Origin: Nitrospinales bacterium
GTDB taxonomy: Bacteria > Nitrospinota > Nitrospinia > Nitrospinales > VA-1
Direction: 5' to 3'
Length of the DNA: 64,000 bases
Assembly (NCBI GenBank): GCA_965262115.1
Contig: OZ253496.1
Span: 1,632,001 to 1,696,000 of the forward strand
A model generated the notes under the pieces. That model was given only the letters and a program-made list of their open reading frames with translations. It made no database searches and was not told the origin of the DNA. A program made the translations under genes and the position numbers. Position 1 is the stretch's first letter. Every line of letters starts with the position of its first letter. Positions 1,240 through 40,948 of the stretch are shown here, piece by piece.

Positions 1240-1860
1240 GTGAATATTTTTAAGGTTGCAGCTTTATTTATCTTTTGTTTGGCGCTCCCCACAGGGGTGT
1301 TGGCGGATACGCTGCCGACTGAAAAGCAAATCGCGAAACCTGCAGTGAAAGCTGAAACGGCAAACCCTGCGGCTAAGGCTGGAAAAGCCAAACCCGCCAC
1401 GATGGCCAAGGTAGAGACCGCAAAACCTGTCACTCCAGTGAAGGCAGAGCCAGCCAAAAAGAAGGCAAATCAAGTTGCTACTTCGGCTAACAAAAATGCG
1501 AAAAAATCCAAAGCCCCTGCCAGGGCCAGAAAGAAAAAACCGAAAGGCCTGGTCATCGGCAAAAACCTCAAAGTAGGGATGTCTCTGAGCGAGGCGATCA
1601 AATTGCTCGGCATCACCGGCTCCATAAAGATCAAGCGTGGAACGGAATCCAAACTCGACAGCATTTCCATTGAGTACGCCAACCACGGAATCGTTATTCA
1701 TTCCCTGAATGGCAAAAGGCAGATTGAGGCTTTGGAAATTCTGCCCACGTTTAAGGGAAGCTTTGCTGAAGGTGTTAAAATAGGAGCAAAGGTCTCCCTC
1801 GGAGGGGAGAGGAACTTAATAGTTGAGGAGTACATCCACCTACGGAAAAATATAACATGA
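1240..1860 (+). pseudogene. Secreted Ala/Lys-rich protein, N-terminal part, interrupted by IS3
   Basis: Signal peptide and AKP-rich linker. The stop codon is the TGA of the IS3 left end. A plausible C-terminal remainder (VPQSMNDSLAKYPERG...LYKKR*) lies at 4337-4480. Confidence 0.6.
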
Positions 1861-1922
1861 TCTTCCCCTGAATTGGTGGACACATCGAAAAGTGTGGATA
1901 ATACACTTTTGGAGGTGTTTTT

Positions 1923-2197
1923 ATGGGAACCAAACGCAGGAGTTTCAGTAAAGAATTCAAGTTAGAAGCGGTTCGATTGGTTATTGAAGTAGGCGATAGC
2001 ATTGCCCGGGTGTCCCGGGATCTGGGAATCCGTTCTGCCCTTCTGGGTCGCTGGAAACAGGAGTATGAGGAGGATCAGGGGAATGCGTTTCCCGGCAAAG
2101 GACAGCTTAAGCCGGGAGATGAGTTGCAGCAGTTGCGGCGAGAAAACGCTCGCCTTCGTATGGAGCGGGACATATTAAAAAAGGCGGCAGTTATCTT
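1923..2197 (+). pseudogene. IS3 transposase OrfA
   Basis: 'RRSFSKEFKLEAVRLV...LRRENARLRMERDILKKAA', A6G slippery site; the 3' end is disrupted by the 41-bp insert. Confidence 0.9.
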
Positions 2198-2248
2198 TGT
2201 GATGTCCTCTTCATTTGTCTTCATGCCCCGAAGCAACTGTGTTAAATG

Positions 2249-3390
<1,142 letters not shown>

Positions 3391-3442
3391 ACTACAAATT
3401 CCCCTTATGAACAACATACAAGGGGTACTCGAAGGGTTCCCA

Positions 3443-4252
3443 ATGAGATATCGGTTTATACGGGATCATCGAGAAGCATTTCCGGTAAGCCCGATGTGCC
3501 GGGTTCTGGAAGTGGGACGAAGTGGGTTCTATGCCTGGCTGAGCCGCCCCGAGAGCCTGAGGAGCCGTGAGAAGCAGCGATGGGTTGATGAGATCAAAAC
3601 CGTTTATAAGAAGAGTCGCCAGACTTATGGCAGTCCCAGAATTCATGAGGACTTGAAAGACAAGGGATATGCCATTGGCAGGCATCGTATTGCCTGTCTT
3701 ATGCGCGAGCATGGAATCGTTGCCAAGCACAAAAGAAAGTTCAGGGTGACAACCGATTCCAAACATAATCACCCGGTGGCAAAAAACAAACTGCAACGGC
3801 GGTTTAATGTTGCTGAGCCCGGTCAATGCTGGGTTTCGGATATCACCTATATCCCGACTCAAGAGGGCTGGTTATACCTTGCGGTGACGCTGGATTTATT
3901 CCACCGTAAAGTTATTGGTTGGGCCATGGATCGTTGGATAACCCGTTGGTTGGTAATGAGAGCTTTAAATATGGCAATGAAGAACGGCGGCATGAAACCG
4001 GGATTGATTCACCATTCTGACCGGGGGGTTCAATATGCCTGCAACGATTTTCAAGCCTTGCTCAATGTTCATGGGATAGAGTGCAGTATGAGCCGGAAGG
4101 GCGATTGCTGGGATAACGCCGTGGCGGAGAGTTTTTTCCATACTCTCAAAGTGGAACTCATTCATAACCGGAACTACAAAACCCGTCAGCAAGCAAAGAA
4201 GGATATTTTTGAATATATCGAAGTGTTTTATAATCGGCAACGCCGTCACTAA
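3443..4252 (+). pseudogene. IS3 transposase OrfB (integrase core) with premature stop
   Basis: [15 protein letters not shown] and AVAESFF DDE motifs; RRH-TAA-YLGYLSP. Confidence 0.9.
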
Positions 4253-4559
4253 TATCTCGGCTATCTCAGCCCTGCCGAATTCGAGAAACAGGCCTATGCC
4301 TCTTAACTAACTGTCCACTAAAACAGGGGAAGATCAGTGCCCCAGTCGATGAATGACAGCCTGGCTAAATACCCTGAAAGGGGAATGTATTTTTCCCTCA
4401 AGTAAAACGTGCTGGTTTCGGCGCATGTCTTCGCCAAAAACAGCAAGCTCATCAGCCATCAACTCTACAAAAAGCGCTAGGCGCGCGGCCAACTTGCAAT
4501 AGCTAAGACTGCTGGCAATAATACTCTTGGCTTGCCCGGTTGCTTCTCGAGGCCATTTT

Positions 4560-11646: not shown

Positions 11647-11865
11647 TTTGCATAACCCCGGATTACCCCCCTCCGGGGCAAGAATTCAAAGGTCAAATAT
11701 CACTAGCTCAGCATGACAATAAAGGGCTGTTTTGTCATTCTGAGGAACAACGTGACGAAGACGTGATATTCGTGATGGCCTCTTCCTTAAACTTCATGCC
11801 CGGCACGGATATTTCCTTAAACTTTGTGCCCCGCAGGGGTAATCTCGGGGTTATGCAAAGGTCTC
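11647..11865. mobile_element. Composite MITE containing nested 39-41-bp units
   Basis: TTTGCATAACC ... GGTTATGCAAAGGTCTC ends; internal sequence shared with the copies at 22648, 25240 and 26778. Confidence 0.8.
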
Positions 11866-18390: not shown

Positions 18391-18570
18391 GAGAGCTTTG
18401 CATAAGTCGAAAAATCGAAGAATCGAGATGCTTCGACATACCCCTCCGGGGCAAGAAAGCTAATGAAGGGATAACACAAGGGCAGTAGCCGTGATATTTT
18501 TCCTCAGTTTTTACCCGTTCCGGGCATGAAGACAAATGAAGAGGACATCACACGTGCCCCGCAAGGGTTA
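18391..18570. repeat. MITE end plus nested 40-41-bp units
   Basis: GAGAGCTTTGCATAA end; units at 18439, 18490 (outer) and 18512 (inner). Confidence 0.75.
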
Positions 18571-20164: not shown

Positions 20165-20378
20165 TACCCCTTCTGGGCACGTGTAATATTTCTTCATTTG
20201 CCTTCATACCCCGAAAGAGTAATCTCGGGTCATACAAAGCTCTCCTTTGTGGGAGGGGAAGCATTATTGAATCTAGTTCCTCCCCTCTCATGAGGGGAGG
20301 CAAGGCGTAGCCGCGGAGGGGTGTGGATTTTTCTGATGAAATTCCTGTTTCCGCATTTTCGACTTATGCAAAGGTCTC
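20165..20378. repeat. Cluster of 41-bp unit, MITE ends and palindromes
   Basis: Unit at 20181-20221; MITE ends at ~20244 and 20378. Confidence 0.7.
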
Positions 20379-22647: not shown

Positions 22648-22900
22648 AGCCGGGATTACCCCTTCTACCCGTTCCGGGCATGAAGTTTAAGGAAGAGGAC
22701 ATCACATACCCGTGCCGGGCATGAAGACTAATGTTGGGGATATTACAAACATCACGTCTTCGTCACCTTGTTCCTCAGAATGACAAAATAGCCTTTTATT
22801 GTCATGCTGAGCTAGTGATATTTGACCTTTGAATTCTTGCCCCGTAGGGGTATCTCGAAGCATCTCGCTTTTCTGTTTTTTTAAGCTTACGCAAAGGTTT
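22648..22900. mobile_element. Composite MITE with tandem 41-bp units
   Basis: Units at 22666-22706, 22707-22747 and 22814-22852; degenerate TTACGCAAAGG end. Confidence 0.8.
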
Positions 22901-23116: not shown

Positions 23117-25131
23117 GTGATTGTGTCGTAATCGAATAGCAGGATAGGAAGAAATATTGAACAGAGCGGGATATTTTGGTTGTTTTGCGCCGTAGCCTGT
23201 ACGCTTGCCCTGACCGTTGGGGAGGTGCTGGCGCAATCCGTCACCATTGACGAGGGTGATACTCACACGACTCGGATTGTATCAATGCGCACTGACGATG
23301 CCATCATCAACAATGGCACAATAATGACGCCGGATTCCTCCGGCATTTTCTCGACGGGTGATGGCGCGACCATCACCAACATCGGCACAATAGAAGCGAG
23401 ATGGGTTCATTCTGAGGGCATTTACTCGGATGCCGCTAACGCGGTGATCAGCAATAGCGGCACAATAACGGCGACGGGCGAAGCCATTTCCGCACATGGC
23501 GATGACATGACCATCACCAGCAGCGGCTCAGTATCAACCACAGGGGTTGTTGCTCACGGTATTTTTGTGGGTGGTGATGACGCGAGCGTAATCAGCAGCG
23601 GCTCAATCTCAACGTCAGGCGGGGATTCTGAGGGTATTTTTTCGAGGGGTGATAATACGATGATCACCCATAGCGGTTCAATCTCAACCACAGGCTCTAC
23701 ATCTGAAGGCATTTTCTCGCAGGGTGTCGGCGCAACTATTACCAGTAGCGGCTCAATCACAACCGCAGGGATAGAGGCTCACGGCATTTTATCGGTGGGC
23801 TCTGGCGCGGCCATCACCAATGACGGCACAATCACAACGACTGGCGATGACGCTCACGGTATTTTTGCCGGGGGTGGTGGCACGGAGATTACCATCAGCG
23901 GCCGTGTGTCTGTCAGTGGCGAGGGTTCCTATGTGGTGAAAGGCTCCGATGCGGGAGATCAAACGCTGAACCTGCTTCGTGGGGCGATGACGAACGGGGA
24001 GTTTAGTCTGGGAGAAAGCAGCGGCGATAATGATATTGCCAACATTTATGTGGATGACATCTCAAGGTCGTCGACTTACACTATCGGCGGGGCCGAGACC
24101 ATCAACCTGTTCAGAGGAGAGGGAAATGCGCAGATATCTCTTCCACTGCCGTGGGTAGCGAATGCTGATGGCGATACTGCGGCTGTGCTCGACCCGACGG
24201 GCTCGTCCGCCGAACGCATGGTGCTGGGTACGGCTACAAGTCAGCTCCACCAGTTGGTGTTTCAGCGGTTGGCAGACACGCGGCAGTCGGCGGGGATGGG
24301 TAGCGGTGCGTCTGATGGGACAACCGGCGGGTCGGGCTGGGGCACTTTTTTTGGTGCCGGGCGCGAGCGTGACGCTGACGGCCTGGCGCAGGCTTGGTCG
24401 AGCCACCGTTTTGGCGCGGTCGGGGGCTACGACATCCGCCTGGACAGCGGCCAGCGTGTTGGTCTGTTTGCCGGGGGCAGCCGTGGGCACATTGAAACCG
24501 ATGCCAGATCGATTGAGACCGACACCAACAGCGGGTTTGTCGGCGCTTACGGGCAGAGCGGATTCTGGGTGGTGGCTGGGGCTTGAGCGGATCGGTGGTC
24601 GGCGGCTATGAAAGCCATAACAGCGACCGCTCCGTGTTCGACAACCTCGAAGGGGATGGAACCGCTGACGGGGGTTACCACAGCTTCTATGTCAGTCCGT
24701 CTCTGGCCCTTGCGTGGTACCATGATCTGGGAGACGGCCTTGAGTTCCGGCCCAGCGCGCAGATTGCTTATACTACGGTGAGCGGCACGACAAACTCCGA
24801 TTTACGCTTCGATGACCGGGATGTGCATATTTTTGACGGCCGCCTGCAACTGGCGCTGGCGCAATCCTACGACCGGGGAGAGATTGAGTTGCGTGGCGGC
24901 GCTACGCTCACCCATTATGGTGATGACAATGTCGATGTCAGCCTGGGCGGAGGTGATCCGATCTCTTACCGGGTGCCGGGTAACGAGACCATCCCCGCCG
25001 GGTATGTGGGTGCCAGTCTGCGTTATGTTGTCAGGGACAATGTCAACCTGGTTGGCGATGTGGAATATCACAATGGCACGGGCGGCACGGAATCCATATC
25101 GGGTTATCTGGGGCTGAGGGTTCGGTTTTAG
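23117..25131 (+). pseudogene. Autotransporter (beta-helical passenger + beta-barrel), disrupted
   Basis: Repeated 'SGSISTTG..HGIF'; C-terminal YLGLRVRF. Frameshift at ~24583 and an in-frame stop shortly after the RBS-linked GTG. Confidence 0.8.
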
Positions 25132-25209: not shown

Positions 25210-25429
25210 CGTCATTCTGAACGATTGCATTGTCATGCGGAGATTCTTCGTCACGTTGTTCCTCAGAATGACAAAATGGCCTTGTATTGTCATGCTGAGC
25301 TAGTGATATTTGACCTTTGAATTCTTGCCCCGTAGGGGTATGTGATATCCTCTTCCTTAAACTTCATGCCCCGTAGGGGTATCTCGAAGCATATCGCTTT
25401 TCTGCTTTATAGACTTACGCAAAGGTCTC
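25210..25429. mobile_element. Composite MITE with tandem 39+41-bp units
   Basis: Units at 25302-25340 and 25341-25381; GACTTACGCAAAGGTCTC end. Confidence 0.8.
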
Positions 25430-25487: not shown

Positions 25488-26777
25488 TGATCTTCCCCTG
25501 TTTTAGTGGACAGTTAGTTAAGAGGCATAGGCCTGTTTCTCGAATTCGGCAGGGCTGAGATAGCCGAGATATTAGTGACGGCGTTGCCGATTATAAAACA
25601 CTTCGATATATTCAAAAATATCCTTCTTTGCTTGCTGACGGGTTTTGTAGTTCCGGTTATGAATGAGTTCCACTTTGAGAGTATGGAAAAAACTCTCCGC
25701 CACGGCGTTATCCCAGCAATCGCCCTTCCGGCTCATACTGCACTCTATCCCATGAACATTGAGCAAGGCTTGAAAATCGTTGCAGGCATATTGAACCCCC
25801 CGGTCAGAATGGTGAATCAATCCCGGTTTCATGCCGCCGTTCTTCATTGCCATATTTAAAGCTCTCATTACCAACCAACGGGTTATCCAACGATCCATGG
25901 CCCAACCAATAACTTTACGGTGGAATAAATCCAGCGTCACCGCAAGGTATAACCAGCCCTCTTGAGTCGGGATATAGGTGATATCCGAAACCCAGCATTG
26001 ACCGGGCTCAGCAACATTAAACCGCCGTTGCAGTTTGTTTTTTGCCACCGGGTGATTATGTTTGGAATCGGTTGTCACCCTGAACTTTCTTTTGTGCTTG
26101 GCAACGATTCCATGCTCGCGCATAAGACAGGCAATACGATGCCTGCCAATGGCATATCCCTTGTCTTTCAAGTCCTCATGAATTCTGGGACTGCCATAAG
26201 TCTGGCGACTCTTCTTATAAACGGTTTTGATCTCATCAACCCATCGCTGCTTCTCACGGCTCCTCAGGCTCTCGGGGCGGCTCAGCCAGGCATAGAACCC
26301 ACTTCGTCCCACTTCCAGAACCCGGCACATCGGGCTTACCGGAAATGCTTCTCGATGATCCCGTATAAACCGATATCTCATTGGGAACCCTTCGAGTACC
26401 CCTTCGTGGCATGAAGACAAATGAAGAGGACATCACAAAGATAACTGCCGCCTTTTTTAATATGTCCCGCTCCATACGAAGGCGAGCGTTTTCTCGCCGC
26501 AACTGCTGCAACTCATCTCCCGGCTTAAGCTGTCCTTTGCCGGGAAACGCATTCCCCTGATCCTCCTCATACTCCTGTTTCCAGCGACCCAGAAGGGCAG
26601 AACGGATTCCCAGATCCCGGGACACCCGGGCAATGCTATCGCCTACTTCAATAACCAATCGAACCGCTTCTAACTTGAATTCTTTACTGAAACTCCTGCG
26701 TTTGGTTCCCATAAAAACACCTCCAAAAGTGTATTATCCACACTTTTCGATGTGTCCACCAATTCAGGGGAAGATCA
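25488..26777 (-). mobile_element. IS3-family insertion sequence, copy 2
   Basis: Same IRs, orfA and orfB; 41-bp insert at 26397-26437. Confidence 0.97.
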
Positions 26778-26988
26778 AGATGCTTCGAGATACCCCTACG
26801 GGGCATGAAGTTTAATGGAGAGGGTATCACATACCCCTACGGGGCAAGAATTCAAAGGTCAAATCACTAGCTCAGCATGACAATAAAAGGCTATTTTGTC
26901 ATTCTGAGGAGCTATTGCAACGAAGACGTGATATTTCACCAAAACTTTCGTGCCCTGAAAGGGTAATCTTGGGTTATGCAAAGCTCTC
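26778..26988. mobile_element. Composite MITE, half cut by IS3
   Basis: Units at 26791, 26832 and 26927; GGTTATGCAAAGCTCTC end. The missing part matches 36600-36637. Confidence 0.8.
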
Positions 26989-27839: not shown

Positions 27840-28446
27840 ATGGATGACCTTACAGAGTTGATTAAAACTTTTGTGATTTTACTGGCCATCATCGATCCCA
27901 TCGGGAACCTTCCTATTTACATTTCCCTGGCCGCCAATAAAACCGATGCGGAGCATAAAGCAATAATTTTAAAAACCAGTTGCGCTTCGGTGGCGTTATT
28001 AACCGTATCTTTCTTGTTCGGAAAATATATTGTGGTGTTTTTCGGCATTCAAATTAATAGGGGGGGGTTTTCCTGGTCTATATCGCTTTCACCATGCTTA
28101 CCGACAACAAGACCTCCCATTCACTTTCCGAAGAGGGGGCGTTAAAGATGATATTGCTTTTATGCCCATGACCTTTCCCCTTTTTATTGGGCCAGCTGCC
28201 ATAAGCCTGGTGATAATTCAATCCACCGAATTCACTCTATGGTCGGCCAAACTAATATCTATTGCAGAATTTGTCCTGATAGGCGTTCTGATCTGGATCT
28301 CTTTAAAACTCGCTAACAGGATTTTAAAATTCCTGGGAAAGGGGAGCATCAAATTCATCACTCAGGTCATGGGTTTGCTCCTGGGTAGCATGGCGATAGG
28401 GATCATTGCCGATGAATTAAAAGTTCTTCTACCCGGCCTGTCTTAG
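27840..28446 (+). pseudogene. MarC family membrane protein, frameshifted
   Basis: IIDPIGNLP and PMTFPLFIGPAAI lie in different frames. Confidence 0.8.
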
Positions 28447-31827: not shown

Positions 31828-32134
31828 TCATGCATTGGGTTCTTTACTTTTCTTCTCATCAGGAATCAAAGCATAACTCGAACCACATCCCTGCCTTTGG
31901 CCGACCATCACCATATTGTTATAGTGATTTTTTAAAACCTGTTTTTCCGTGTAATCCGCCGCATAAGAATCGGTCAAAAACAGAACCGCGTTAGGGTGGA
32001 AACCAAGGACGCCGCCATTGGAACCAGGGTTTCGGAAAACCACAATTCATGCTTGTTGAGGTTGAAAAAAAACAGGATGGGGTAAATATAGCCAGGATAA
32101 AGAGATGGATCACCAGAGTTCTTTTTTCAGGCAT
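31828..32134 (-). pseudogene. Degraded membrane protein remnant downstream of the methyltransferase
   Basis: MPEKRTLVIHLFILA / IYPILFFFNLNKHEL in shifting frames; overlaps the MTase stop. Confidence 0.45.
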
Positions 32135-33533
32135 GGCTCTTATTTTTCATGAGATAAAGGGTTCGTTCAGAATCGCCGACTTTTTCAGACTTTATGATAT
32201 TGAAAAACTGGAGGAATTCGCTTTCAAACGCTTCCTGCGTATAGTCGGGAAAGATGTCTTCCCTCGAGGCCAGTAGTTTTTGCGCCATCGGGTCTGACTT
32301 TGGAACAAATTCGATGATCAGAGATCGACAGGTGTTTCTGAAAAACCCGGCTATCTTAGCCAACGGAACATTGTTGGATATGGCCAGATGATGGATCAGA
32401 GCTAAGGCGAGTATGGTTTCTGTCGGCCCTCTTTCCTGAAGGGACATTCTTTCTTTATTCTCCCACCCAATACTAGGGCTGGGGTTGTTGAGATCAACCC
32501 ATAGGGGAAGCAGATTTTTCTCTCCATTTTTCAGCGTTTGAAGATAACTGGTCTCAACACAACCGGGGTCGGTGTCCATTGAAATCGTGGTTATGCCTCG
32601 GTCACTTGCAATCCTGCTGAAAACTCCTGTGTTGGCTCCCAAATCCCAAACGGTACCGGGTTTTAAAAAGTCCAGATAGCCTGCCACCTGTTTGATTTTT
32701 TGCTCCAAAAATTTTGGGACATGGGCACATTCGCTGTAATAGTTTACCCATTCGCTTTTCCCAGGTCTCCAATACATATTTTTAATGGCAGATTCCAAAC
32801 TATCTGTTAGTCCAAGAAGGGACTTTCTACTCATGGTCTGGTTGCTGGCAGCTGTTGAAGCTTGCTCGACATGTTTTGTTTGGTATCTGGCATGCAAATG
32901 AATATGCGTTGCCAAATGAAAATTGAAGTACGTCCTTCCAGGAAGTAACGATGAAACCAAGTCCAGTGGGATGCCGCTAATATATTCGCGTAACATCCGT
33001 CCGAGACTTATGTCCTTATAACTCATCAACGCCAGAGGGCCGAGAAAGTTTTCGCAGAACTGTTTGTAACCAGCCCAAGGTTCCCCCTCTTGATACTTTT
33101 CAAAAGAAAGAGTGTCGATCAATATAGGTTGTCCCTGGTAGAATTGGATGTTGTAAGCATTGGCATCCTTGAGAATCATGCCATGACTCAAGGTACGCTT
33201 TAAAATAGTCAGGGTTAGCAGAGCAGCATTTTTAAACTGAGTGAAACACCATTCGTAGGGATAGGATATAAATGGAATAGGCTCTGGTCGAATAGTCTGA
33301 TAGCCATCAGAAAAGGGAAAGTGGCTCGCGTCAACAGTTTCATGAGGGATCAATAATCTTTTGTTACGGAGCTTTTCATATAGCCCCGATTCTAAAAAAT
33401 AATCAAAATTTTCTTTATAAACTGGATTGATTTGACGGTAACAGACTCCTTCCCAATAAAAAACAAAGCCGCTTGGGTCACGAAAGGAACTGTTCTCAGT
33501 TTCTGGGATCATTTGTGTTGTTTTTGCCAACAA
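32127..33533 (-). CDS. Class I SAM-dependent methyltransferase, NoeA-like (kinase-like N-domain)
   Basis: SFRDPSG, ISYPYEW, LKDANAYN, WDLGANTG, LALIHHL. Confidence 0.85.
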   Translation of the reverse strand: MLAKTTQMIPETENSSFRDPSGFVFYWEGVCYRQINPVYKENFDYFLESGLYEKLRNKRLLIPHETVDASHFPFSDGYQTIRPEPIPFISYPYEWCFTQFKNAALLTLTILKRTLSHGMILKDANAYNIQFYQGQPILIDTLSFEKYQEGEPWAGYKQFCENFLGPLALMSYKDISLGRMLREYISGIPLDLVSSLLPGRTYFNFHLATHIHLHARYQTKHVEQASTAASNQTMSRKSLLGLTDSLESAIKNMYWRPGKSEWVNYYSECAHVPKFLEQKIKQVAGYLDFLKPGTVWDLGANTGVFSRIASDRGITTISMDTDPGCVETSYLQTLKNGEKNLLPLWVDLNNPSPSIGWENKERMSLQERGPTETILALALIHHLAISNNVPLAKIAGFFRNTCRSLIIEFVPKSDPMAQKLLASREDIFPDYTQEAFESEFLQFFNIIKSEKVGDSERTLYLMKNKSHA

Positions 33534-35309: not shown

Positions 35310-36599
35310 TGATCTTCCCCTGAATTGGTGGACACATCGAAAAGTGTGGATAATACACTTTTGGAGGTGTTTTTATGGGAACCAAACGCAGGAGTTTCAG
35401 TAAAGAATTCAAGTTAGAAGCGGTTCGATTGGTTATTGAAGTAGGCGATAGCATTGCCCGGGTGTCCCGGGATCTGGGAATCCGTTCTGCCCTTCTGGGT
35501 CGCTGGAAACAGGAGTATGAGGAGGATCAGGGGAATGCGTTTCCCGGCAAAGGACAGCTTAAGCCGGGAGATGAGTTGCAGCAGTTGCGGCGAGAAAACG
35601 CTCGCCTTCGTATGGAGCGGGACATATTAAAAAAGGCGGCAGTTATCTTTGTGATGTCCTCTTCATTTGTCTTCATGCCCCGAAGGGGTACTCGAAGGGT
35701 TCCCAATGAGATATCGGTTTATACGGGATCATCGAGAAGCATTTCCGGTAAGCCCGATGTGCCGGGTTCTGGAAGTGGGACGAAGTGGGTTCTATGCCTG
35801 GCTGAGCCGCCCCGAGAGCCTGAGGAGCCGTGAGAAGCAGCGATGGGTTGATGAGATCAAAACCGTTTATAAGAAGAGTCGCCAGACTTATGGCAGTCCC
35901 AGAATTCATGAGGACTTGAAAGACAAGGGATATGCCATTGGCAGGCATCGTATTGCCTGTCTTATGCGCGAGCATGGAATCGTTGCCAAGCACAAAAGAA
36001 AGTTCAGGGTGACAACCGATTCCAAACATAATCACCCGGTGGCAAAAAACAAACTGCAACGGCGGTTTAATGTTGCTGAGCCCGGTCAATGCTGGGTTTC
36101 GGATATCACCTATATCCCGACTCAAGAGGGCTGGTTATACCTTGCGGTGACGCTGGATTTATTCCACCGTAAAGTTATTGGTTGGGCCATGGATCGTTGG
36201 ATAACCCGTTGGTTGGTAATGAGAGCTTTAAATATGGCAATGAAGAACGGCGGCATGAAACCGGGATTGATTCACCATTCTGACCGGGGGGTTCAATATG
36301 CCTGCAACGATTTTCAAGCCTTGCTCAATGTTCATGGGATAGAGTGCAGTATGAGCCGGAAGGGCGATTGCTGGGATAACGCCGTGGCGGAGAGTTTTTT
36401 CCATACTCTCAAAGTGGAACTCATTCATAACCGGAACTACAAAACCCGTCAGCAAGCAAAGAAGGATATTTTTGAATATATCGAAGTGTTTTATAATCGG
36501 CAACGCCGTCACTAATATCTCGGCTATCTCAGCCCTGCCGAATTCGAGAAACAGGCCTATGCCTCTTAACTAACTGTCCACTAAAACAGGGGAAGATCA
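35310..36599 (+). mobile_element. IS3-family insertion sequence, copy 3
   Basis: Same IRs, orfA and orfB; 41-bp insert at 35650-35690. Confidence 0.97.
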
Positions 36600-38269: not shown

Positions 38270-38480
38270 AGTACCGGGGGACTTTTAATTTTCGCCTCAC
38301 AGACCAGCGCCACGCTGGCACCTGGTGCGGAGAACCTCCGCCCACTAGCCGTGGGGGCAACTAGCAATGATCTATCACTCGAACAACAATACTCTCGGCC
38401 CAATAGGCTATTATTCTTTGGGTCCAGCGCCACGCTGGCCTGTGGTGTTTTCCTCCATGCCTCAGAGCAATAGATTTTTT

Positions 38481-38600
38481 TACCCCTGCGGGGCACATGT
38501 AATATTTCTTAATTTGCCTTCATGCCCGGAACGGGTAAAAGTTTAGGAAGTACCCGTGCCGGGCATGAAGTTTAACGAAAAGGACATCACAAATATCACG
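38481..38600. repeat. Triple-nested micro-element
   Basis: Outer unit with inserts at 38497-38537 and 38551-38591. Confidence 0.85.
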
Positions 38601-38867
38601 CCCAACGGGTGTGACCCGGTTCCTCAAACCAGGTGTCTGTCGCCCATATCCTCTTTTCAGATAAGCAGTTAAAGTTTTTGCAATATTTTCTATGAAGAAG
38701 TCCGTGCGAGCGATTAGAATAGGGGAGCCTGTTAAGGCCTTCTTTGCTTTCACTCCAATCAGGTAATGGATGATGTTTAAATTTATGGTGTGGTTTTCGG
38801 TGATTGTCACCGTAGGTTTTATAGTGTTGTTGGTGTTTGATTACGGTTAAGGTTTACCAAAAAGAAC

Positions 38868-39377
38868 ATGAAGTTATCCCTGTCTTTGATCAAGGCATTT
38901 CTGATTTTTCCGGTGAATGTGATGGGGGTGATTCCTGCCCTTCTGATCTGGTGTTCGCGGCCCGGCGGGGTGCTCGAACATTTCCCATATAGTTTTAATA
39001 GTTTTAGGTCGTTGGCTGGCATTTTGTTGATCGGTGCAGGAGCCGGACTGTGCTGGAAAACGGTTTCCCTGTTCACCGAGGTGGGTGAAGGCACCCCGGC
39101 TCCGTTTGATCCGCCCAGAAAATTGGTGATCCAGGGGCCGTATGTTCATGTGCGCAATCCCATGATGGTTGGGGTCTGGCTGGTTTTGTTGGGAGAGGCC
39201 TTAGCTTTTGGTTCGGTTCCCTTGGTGGTATGGTTTTTGGTCTTTTGTGGGCTGTGCCTGATTCTCATTCCGGTTTGGGAAGAGCCTGATCTGGAAAACA
39301 GGTTTGGCGAACCTTATCGGGAATACAAACGCAAGGTGCCCCGCTGGCTCCTTCACAGGAGAGGCGACCGGCAATAG
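38868..39377 (+). CDS. Isoprenylcysteine carboxyl methyltransferase family protein
   Basis: GPYVHVRNPM, EE..L..RFG..Y. Confidence 0.9.
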   Translation: MKLSLSLIKAFLIFPVNVMGVIPALLIWCSRPGGVLEHFPYSFNSFRSLAGILLIGAGAGLCWKTVSLFTEVGEGTPAPFDPPRKLVIQGPYVHVRNPMMVGVWLVLLGEALAFGSVPLVVWFLVFCGLCLILIPVWEEPDLENRFGEPYREYKRKVPRWLLHRRGDRQ

Positions 39378-40839: not shown

Positions 40840-40948
40840 TACCCCTGCGGGGCATGAAGGTAAATGAAGGGATATAACACGTGACCGCAAAAAACGTGGG
40901 TCCGGTGGTCATGGTATTTTTCCTTAGCCTTTGTGCCTCGAAGGGGTA
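40840..40948. repeat. Two inverted 39-41-bp micro-element units
   Basis: Units at 40840-40880 and 40910-40948. Confidence 0.75.

Follow-up and report, generated by a model that had tools for sequence, protein, structure and literature searches.

A 39–41-bp repeat unit with fixed ends and a co-varying end-to-end base pair is a recently mobile micro-element of Nitrospinota

Dispersed through the genome of a Nitrospinales bacterium is a repeat unit of about 40 bp that is a real, recently mobile micro-element, kin to very small orphan repeats. Individual units are gained and lost whole at orthologous sites, and the first base of the unit co-varies with the base that precedes its hairpin, an end-to-end pair that provides a new clue on this family. 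We studied the unit in a stretch of 64,000 nucleotides (hereafter, the window), in the whole source genome (G000; 2.68 Mb, a single contig, completeness rating 94%), and in related genomes.

The unit reads n-G-T-(G/T/A)-A-T, followed by a G-poor spacer, T-T-C-N, and one hairpin, T-G-C-C-C-S-(G-any-A)-S'-G-G-G-T-A, which has a 6-bp stem with a co-varying S/S' pair, a G-any-A (GNA) triloop, and the unit's G-G-G-T-A end. A strict pattern matched 13 times in the 64-kb window vs none in each of 200 dinucleotide-preserving shuffles, and 172 times in the genome vs 0–1 in three shuffles; a chance origin of these matches is excluded. Profile searching of the genome returned 435 matches at E ≤ 10 (shuffled control: 6, the top one at 11.1 bits), with 396 reaching 12 bits. 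When units were removed from the inside outward, we arrived at 270 intact units (241 of them 39–41 bp long), compared to two in the reversed genome, and 147 decayed or split copies were left as profile matches. Genes are avoided: though predicted genes (≥120 residues) cover 77% of the genome, they contain 15 of 365 matches. Seven of these fall in an IS3, and the others are close to the predicted end of a gene or belong to a single doubtful frame.

A scan of species genomes uncovered at least 106 stretches with units, and the 80 titles listed were all Nitrospinota. An exact match to the hairpin half of the unit was present in 38 of 120 Nitrospinota genomes (reversed control: 0), namely the source genome, 35 of the 69 others in its family, and 2 of 21 from another family; in low-copy distant genomes, the units are located within host repeats. 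Three stretches on two phage contigs carry units as well, with no mobile gene seen beside them, and a tandem-junction pattern had no matches among viral sequences. Rfam and tRNA scans of the window were empty, and a literature search (in a library short of most subscription journals) returned no published description of a 39–41-bp unit, in agreement with the original prediction, which had recognised no described family.

That prediction had counted about two dozen units in the window, and the profile finds 24 matches there, some of them pieces of one split unit. Eleven places had been given as exactly 41 bp; all hold units and nine have this length, while two (20182–20221 and 38498–38537) are 40 bp long and begin one base later, the extra base being the host's. 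The proposed self-nesting is borne out at 38481–38600, which splits exactly into a 39-bp host and two inserts of 40 and 41 bp (Table 1). Likewise, the difference between 22814–22852 and 25302–25381 is one exact 41-bp unit. A further proposal, that 26927, 40910, 18490, 11762, and 38481 form a presence/absence series in one host unit, calls for a caveat: these are a set of paralogous copies, not one locus. Around the nested units (window 38270–38870), most relatives have a response-regulator-like gene between a helicase and a methyltransferase, whereas the source genome and its relative G007 have repeats in place of this gene.

Table 1 Units and associated elements in the window
Feature	Position	Strand	Evidence
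Host unit, 39 bp, in three pieces (38592–38600, 38538–38550, 38481–38497), split by two inserted units	38481..38600	-	Sequence
Insert A, 40-bp unit, T..A end pair, orientation opposite to host	38498..38537	+	Sequence; X5 and X7 contigs also join across
Insert B, 41-bp unit, T..A end pair	38551..38591	-	Missing at orthologous place in related strains (X5 5-kb contig, X7 contig)
A..T-subfamily unit within GTC-tagged palindromic host	11664..11704	-	
39-bp host unit with 41-bp insert (11771–11811) at the insert-B site	11762..11841	+	
Decayed unit	18439..18476	-	
39-bp host unit with 41-bp insert (18512–18552, -)	18490..18569	+	Insert-free host in G013; no host in G007, G003
Decayed 40-bp unit within remnant of minus-strand host (20165–20181)	20182..20221	+	Uninterrupted host in G019
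Tandem pair of 41-bp units; natural junction folds to extended 8-bp stem	22666..22747	-	
Lone 39-bp unit, A..T subfamily	22814..22852	+	
39-bp A..T unit, then 41-bp T..A unit (25341–25381)	25302..25381	+	
41-bp unit within IS3 copy (~25488–26777)	26397..26437	-	
37-bp A..T unit (26832–26868), then 41-bp unit (26791–26831)	26791..26868	-	
39-bp unit, C..G subfamily, within GTC-tagged palindromic host	26927..26965	+	
41-bp unit at orfA end of IS3 (~35310–36599)	35650..35690	+	Exactly 41 bases missing in related G016 IS3
40-bp unit common to G000 and G007	40840..40879	-	
Decayed 39-bp unit	40910..40948	+	Orthologous site empty in G007
41-bp unit in IS3 copy (~1858–4336), loop-split by IS110 (2198–2233 + 3423–3427)	2198..3427	+	
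IS621-like IS110, CT core, targets unit loop; transposase (2395–3189) shortened	2234..3422	-	
Predicted target-binding loop of IS110 bridge RNA: left guide 3299–3307, right guide 3275–3281	3275..3307	-	Both guides match unit hairpin
Strongly decayed unit, 10.8 bits	4650..4689	-	

Empty sites occur at both the paralogous and the orthologous level. Within the source genome, 74 of 139 non-tandem flank pairs have an empty look-alike, for which the best offset was 0 in 64 cases, tied in four, and elsewhere in six. For the orthologous comparison we used an anchored alignment with the relative G013 that covered 1.27 of 2.86 Mb at 94.8% identity and 196 collinear junctions; an earlier whole-block alignment broke at intergenic regions and gave just two unit indels. 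Sixteen of the 43 clean indels of 25–60 bp measured 39–41 bp, and 15 of the 43 were whole units (eight recognised by regular expression, seven by reading of the list), with 12 present only in the source genome and three only in G013. Window sites 18490 and 40910 are likewise insert-free, host-free, or empty in relatives (Table 1), and contigs from runs X5 and X7—two studies, ~95% like the window—join across insert B; a first read comparison was dominated by paralogous joints and so was uninformative on within-strain polymorphism. Lastly, in the G016 homologue of the IS3, a gap of exactly 41 bp stands where the unit lies, and orfA has a normal, intact end, so that the unit at orfA is an insertion. 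With single units gained or lost whole at 15 orthologous sites and in this IS3, the unit conforms to the original prediction, which had proposed a discrete and very small element that is non-autonomous and has conserved ends.

As also anticipated, insertion leaves no target duplication. We grouped insertions into 50 independent site classes and found no 3–5-bp duplication at any, and shorter flank matches were near chance (1 bp in 16/50, 2 bp in 5/50). Units sit mostly in other palindromic repeats or in copies of themselves, and the target preference is weak: G stands at –5 in 28 and A at –2 in one of the 50 site classes, no tetranucleotide is conserved among them, and targets resemble the 3′ arm of the hairpin modestly (1.98 vs 1.49 ± 0.14). 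Nor do the targets carry the dinucleotide A|n (A at –1 in 14/50, n at +1 in 11/50), in which they differ from Y1 targets selected by a guide, and folding of empty targets gave no clear preferred pairing state. No bias for one replichore strand was apparent, either among matches (205 vs 191) or unique sites (70 vs 87), a comparison that IS-driven rearrangements could blur. We considered whether the flanks could account for the variable middle, by complementarity or as the source of a copy, and rejected the idea as there was no diagonal signal. Composites spread units passively too—75 of 215 fall into one site class—and we infer such passive spread within larger REP-like composites and within an IS3. 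One such neighbourhood lies at G013:C1:382000-409000 (L115, L116), where long co-oriented tandem arrays of GTC-tagged repeats, with units as passengers, have expanded between housekeeping genes.

One regularity within the unit links its beginning to the foot of its hairpin. Of 149 distinct units, 137 have a first base, n, that is Watson–Crick complementary to N, the base before the hairpin, whereas shuffles average 73 and do not exceed 92; the pair is T:A in 90, C:G in 35, and A:T in 12, and these counts overstate independence because the copies are related. Reduced to one representative per site class, 44 of 50 remain paired (shuffles: mean 24.8, maximum 37). Mutual information for n:N is 0.81 bits vs 0.88 for the closing pair of the hairpin, and two-sided changes occupy 40 cells, a value reached in 0 of 500 shuffles; this last count used a separate set of units from many genomes, taken from the window and from fetched loci (150 of 153 distinct ones). 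Of the two end pairs only this one varies; G:C was never seen at n:N among these units, and C/A mismatches are fairly common. A register slid by +2 pairs 98% of cells through wobble, without two-sided changes.

The pairing extends beyond this set. In other genomes 105 of 128 new units were paired, most of them from a search that allowed only A or G at N. Between spacers differing by at most one base, both bases switched in 17 pairs, one switched in 48, and both changed without pairing in two; such co-switches are present in all three length classes. In a blind metagenome scan of 20 stretches, with N fixed as a pyrimidine and n left free, n was A in 18 of the 19 matches with N=T (7 of 8 distinct sequences, a subfamily with a different spacer), the lone N=C match being mismatched. 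At 21 tandem junctions, N and the first base of the next unit combine as A/T in 12, T/T in eight, and G/T in one; since the eight T/T neighbours mismatch while those units keep their own A:T, n pairs with N in cis. Multi-site units are not more often paired than single-site ones (12/14 vs 107/115).

This co-variation implies that joining the two ends extends the hairpin across the break, which points to a single-stranded mini-circle whose geometry resembles that of TnpA-REP. A natural tandem junction does fold to an extended stem of 8 bp, with C:G and N:n added, and the circular fold of one unit contains identical pairs at a net energy of about zero; folding energies of single units were no better than those of shuffles (z –0.3 to –1.6). 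An intermediate with paired ends, single-stranded or circular, is thus our favoured interpretation, and we hold it with good confidence. In a single strand, n-G would pair with C-N and stack on the hairpin, so bringing the 5′ end beside the terminal A. The two ends would be joined, placing the break A|n within an uninterrupted stem of 8 bp, and the circle would then be reopened at A|n and joined to a new site with weak sequence preference, mostly another palindromic repeat or a copy of the unit itself. The chemistry would probably be an HUH-type phosphotyrosine transfer by an enzyme supplied in trans, akin to the HUH/Y1 transposase of REP elements. This complete scheme, mini-circle plus trans-acting HUH-type chemistry, we judge as apt to be wrong as right because the enzyme is missing.

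The original prediction had suggested mobilisation by a single-strand HUH enzyme or a recombinase: the end-to-end pair and the GNA-triloop hairpin lend new support to single-strand processing, but no Y1/RAYT gene (PF01797) was found in G000, G013, or G007. One weak Y1 match in the source genome (E 0.02) sits in an unrelated gene and was discarded. G000 and G013 both lack PF01797 and yet differ by at least 15 units, and the 37 of 120 Nitrospinota genomes that have this family do not track the units. Among 32 fetched Y1 loci (some represented twice, out of a larger number of matches), none had a full unit within 1.5 kb and one had a partial match; subclass 1.2-like Y1 genes are accompanied by G-any-A hairpin repeats of another layout, in unit-free genomes. 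The source genome likewise gave no match for TnpB, Rep_trans, serine resolvases, or the relaxase PF03432, nor for Y2 (PF04986) and Rep_1, for which control genomes were equally silent. Three further candidates were dismissed: reverse transcriptase (two broken pieces in a 100-kb, probably non-bacterial stretch), Cas1 (three genes, all in ordinary CRISPR loci that are partly decayed and show no connection to units), and an integron-like integrase (truncated in G000, and with no third PF13495 match in G013). A scan for HUH motifs, together with reading of repeat-flanked or atypical-codon genes (part of which were scanned against Pfam), gave no candidate.

The original prediction had also raised the possibility of a transposase, RAYT, GIY-YIG, or RT gene flanked by unit ends. 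We found none: orphan half units in the source genome belong to the IS3, the IS110, or nested inserts, or have no mobile gene beside them, and the GIY-YIG genes carry a different family of flanking repeats that is itself host to units.

Measured against known systems, the unit works most like a substrate of REP/TnpA-REP yet fails REP membership. TnpA-REP cleaves at C|T (PMC3333891), this dinucleotide being selected through pairing with the last tag bases at the hairpin foot (PMC3333891, PMC8266576), and group 3 enzymes act on 5–8-bp stems with short loops (PMC8266576). The unit shares with REPs and REPINs mobilised by RAYTs, especially the short-stem, 3-nt-loop repeats of group 3, a short, extragenic, high-copy hairpin and the occurrence of tandem arrays (PMC8266576, PMC3333891, PMC3116915, PMC6006769). 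The dinucleotide across the proposed break would face hairpin-foot bases in both (A|n facing T and N in the unit), and both are targeted by IS621-like IS110 elements. A cut site chosen by foot pairing would fit the co-variation, though the targets are without the A|n dinucleotide. On the other side, the unit has T-T-C-N at its foot in place of a GTAG/GTGG tag; it moves as a single hairpin with fixed ends, not as the inverted doublet with variable ends of a REPIN; its paired base is its own first position, in three variants; and the PF01797 search of G000, G013, and G007 found no cognate RAYT.

Other families fit less well, and the unit also fails membership among IS200/IS605 derivatives, MITEs, CGTC-tagged REPs, and attC sites. 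With IS200/IS605 it has in common the lack of a target duplication, a break that lies ~25 nt to the 5′ side of a hairpin whose 5′ foot carries a pairing base, and a proposed single-stranded circle; an IS200/IS605 derivative, however, has two subterminal hairpins to the unit's one, and the unit has neither a conserved tetra- or pentanucleotide target nor a replichore bias, in a genome without TnpA or TnpB. The ends of the unit differ from each other and no 3–5-bp duplication was seen at the 50 site classes, whereas classical MITEs have terminal inverted repeats and a target duplication. As an integron attC site in a circular cassette is complete as a hairpin only once the end has joined its own start, the topology is comparable, but the unit has no R/L boxes, cargo gene, array, or conserved crossover bases at its targets, and its stem is much shorter. 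We also rejected the notion that the co-oriented units of G013 form an integron-like array, given that these units are carried by tandem GTC-tagged repeats lying between housekeeping genes.

CGTC-tagged REPs are palindromic, occupy the same intergenic clusters as the unit, and have no known transposase, but are set apart by their CGTC/TGTC tag and 8–9-bp stem, and they are its commonest hosts; their description presents the family as one without a dedicated transposase, whose spread is an open question (PMC3733652). The nearest kind are the SDR repeats of Nostoc (Elhai et al. 2008, Genome Res 18:1484): both are very small, dispersed, and precisely inserted. SDRs, too, reportedly nest in their own copies and show compensatory changes in structure, with the enzyme said to be unknown, and their reported length is 21–27 nt compared to 39–41 bp here; the two belong to different phyla. 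SDR5 has the octamer HIP1 as a fixed target (PMC4390886), and no such target exists for the unit.

Possibly, and in our estimation rather doubtfully, the unit represents a new class of minimal transposable element, a ~40-nt strand that circularises itself as its own first bases pair below its hairpin, and that is served for cutting and insertion by a resident enzyme from outside the known transposase families; that enzyme could, equally tentatively, be a small nuclease together with host enzymes or an unrecognised HUH fold. Were this reading true, the split-hairpin rule could serve as a search signature for further orphan repeats, SDRs and CGTC REPs among them. Fixed ends, insertions that can be dated by comparing closed genomes, and a pairing rule that points to a probable intermediate and site of breakage make the spread of REP-like and SDR-like repeats that lack a linked transposase testable with a 40-nt oligonucleotide. 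An enzyme able to place a short single strand without a scar, while tolerating a freely variable middle and asking little of its target, would be of interest to genome engineers.

The main rivals for the mover are small GIY-YIG genes. In the source genome and its relatives, GTC-tagged palindromic repeats regularly flank these genes, which are ~100 residues long (L120-L149; G000:C1:2573200-2573538), and genes that we take to be DUF559-like from a motif also lie among repeats. A paired-end circle could then arise without a transposase if a small GIY-YIG or DUF559-type nuclease cut the hairpin foot and host ligase sealed the ends, a scenario that we regard as unlikely but ahead of the other alternatives. 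A nick within the 8-bp stem, held by n:N and G:C, would be a natural ligase substrate, no Y1 gene would be needed, small GIY-YIG genes are common in the genus (G000 and G013 included), and units are very often found within the GTC-tagged repeats flanking them, in a distant family too. Yet the GIY-YIG genes have their own flanking repeats, in which units are inserts at one place; the unit-free genomes G009 and G017 carry such genes as well; and a nuclease plus ligase can hardly account for exact insertion in the absence of homology and duplication.

Recombination of a folded single strand by a tyrosine recombinase (XerC/D or an integron-like integrase), as for attC, we consider improbable. The split-hairpin topology is that of an integron cassette, pairing 3′ of the break would suit a 3′-phosphotyrosine chemistry, and the source genome has two XerC/D-like genes, one truncated integrase, and one fragment. 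Against this, the attC core boxes are absent, the stem probably offers too little length for two recombinase arms, no crossover bases are common to the targets, and the co-oriented G013 cluster is not a cassette array; moreover, PF13495 has just two matches each in G013 and G007, and the G000 integrase is missing the C-terminal catalytic His/Tyr region. This truncated integrase (G000:C1:2162100-2165400; L336) adjoins a DNA methylase and an HNH-like nuclease and is inserted at a spot that has none in G013.

Slightly less probable still is an RNA route, in which units would be excised from transcripts, made circular, and returned to DNA by a reverse transcriptase. Base-pair co-variation alone cannot separate RNA from DNA, and the IS3 with its frame-breaking unit has reached 14 different left flanks, as though the unit could be taken out; however, the sole RT matches are the two broken pieces mentioned above, units are nearly missing from genes, no sense/antisense preference exists, and G-any-A triloops are a feature of DNA hairpins. 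That the unit has no mobility of its own—copies being spread by hitch-hiking, gene conversion, and slippage, and n:N reflecting three founder subfamilies—is very improbable: many copies are indeed passengers of expanded composites (the one large site class and the G013 arrays) and identical tandem arrays occur, but the 50 independent non-tandem site classes lack homology to the unit ends, insertion into the IS3 reading frame is exact, n and N co-switch inside spacer lineages, and a second A..T subfamily with another spacer is present at several sites.

Two insertion sequences are closely associated with the units. The element at 2234–3422 is an IS621-like member of the IS110 family: it encodes DEDD and Transposase_20 domains, has a short core at both junctions, and possesses guides that match its target. 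Its core is CT, and sequences in its left end match both halves of the target, left and right; this is a bridge-RNA arrangement with left and right guides as in IS621 (PMC10849738). All 26 left junctions of this IS110 lie within a unit-type hairpin loop, and in the two divergent copies, a changed right guide goes with a changed target. The IS110 is present in 9 of 120 Nitrospinota genomes at E ≤ 1e-40 and was not found in most of the unit-rich ones, although multi-copy IS may be unassembled there. As it inserts into the loop, not at the ends, and was not found in most unit-rich genomes, it is a parasite of the unit rather than its mover. Related elements form a Nitrospinota clade (L258, L259, L260, L261, L262) whose guides fit the unit, GTC-tagged repeats, or DUF559-type repeats, and in G013, too, an IS110 of this clade sits within a unit. 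A clade with separate guides for each repeat family offers a clean natural example of bridge-RNA retargeting.

The IS3, by contrast with the IS110, carries the unit along. All 15 copies in the source genome that keep the orfA end contain it (in the window: 1858–4336, 25488–26777, and 35310–36599), and the unit runs the usual –1 fusion frame into a stop. With 14 different left flanks among 18 left ends, the IS3 has spread with the unit in place, whether a helper acted in trans, a different frameshift was used, or the unit was temporarily removed.

Several further observations concern the genome at large. The first ~100 kb of the contig (G000:C1:1-100000) are almost non-coding, of lower GC, and rich in tandem repeats, contain the broken RT pieces and no units, and are probably non-bacterial sequence joined to the assembly. 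Three CRISPR-Cas loci (G000:C1:765600-769600, 2120000-2128200, and 2643300-2647200) appear by eye to be I-F-like (with a 12-repeat array), I-C-like, and II-like, the last two fragmented. Finally, the window (23180–25131, 27840–28446, and 32127–33533) contains a 468-aa frame that has no Pfam match and precedes a distinct autotransporter beta-domain frame, another 468-aa frame at a different place, and a MarC gene split across two frames; the split autotransporter-type and MarC frames look like pseudogenes in an IS-rich genome.
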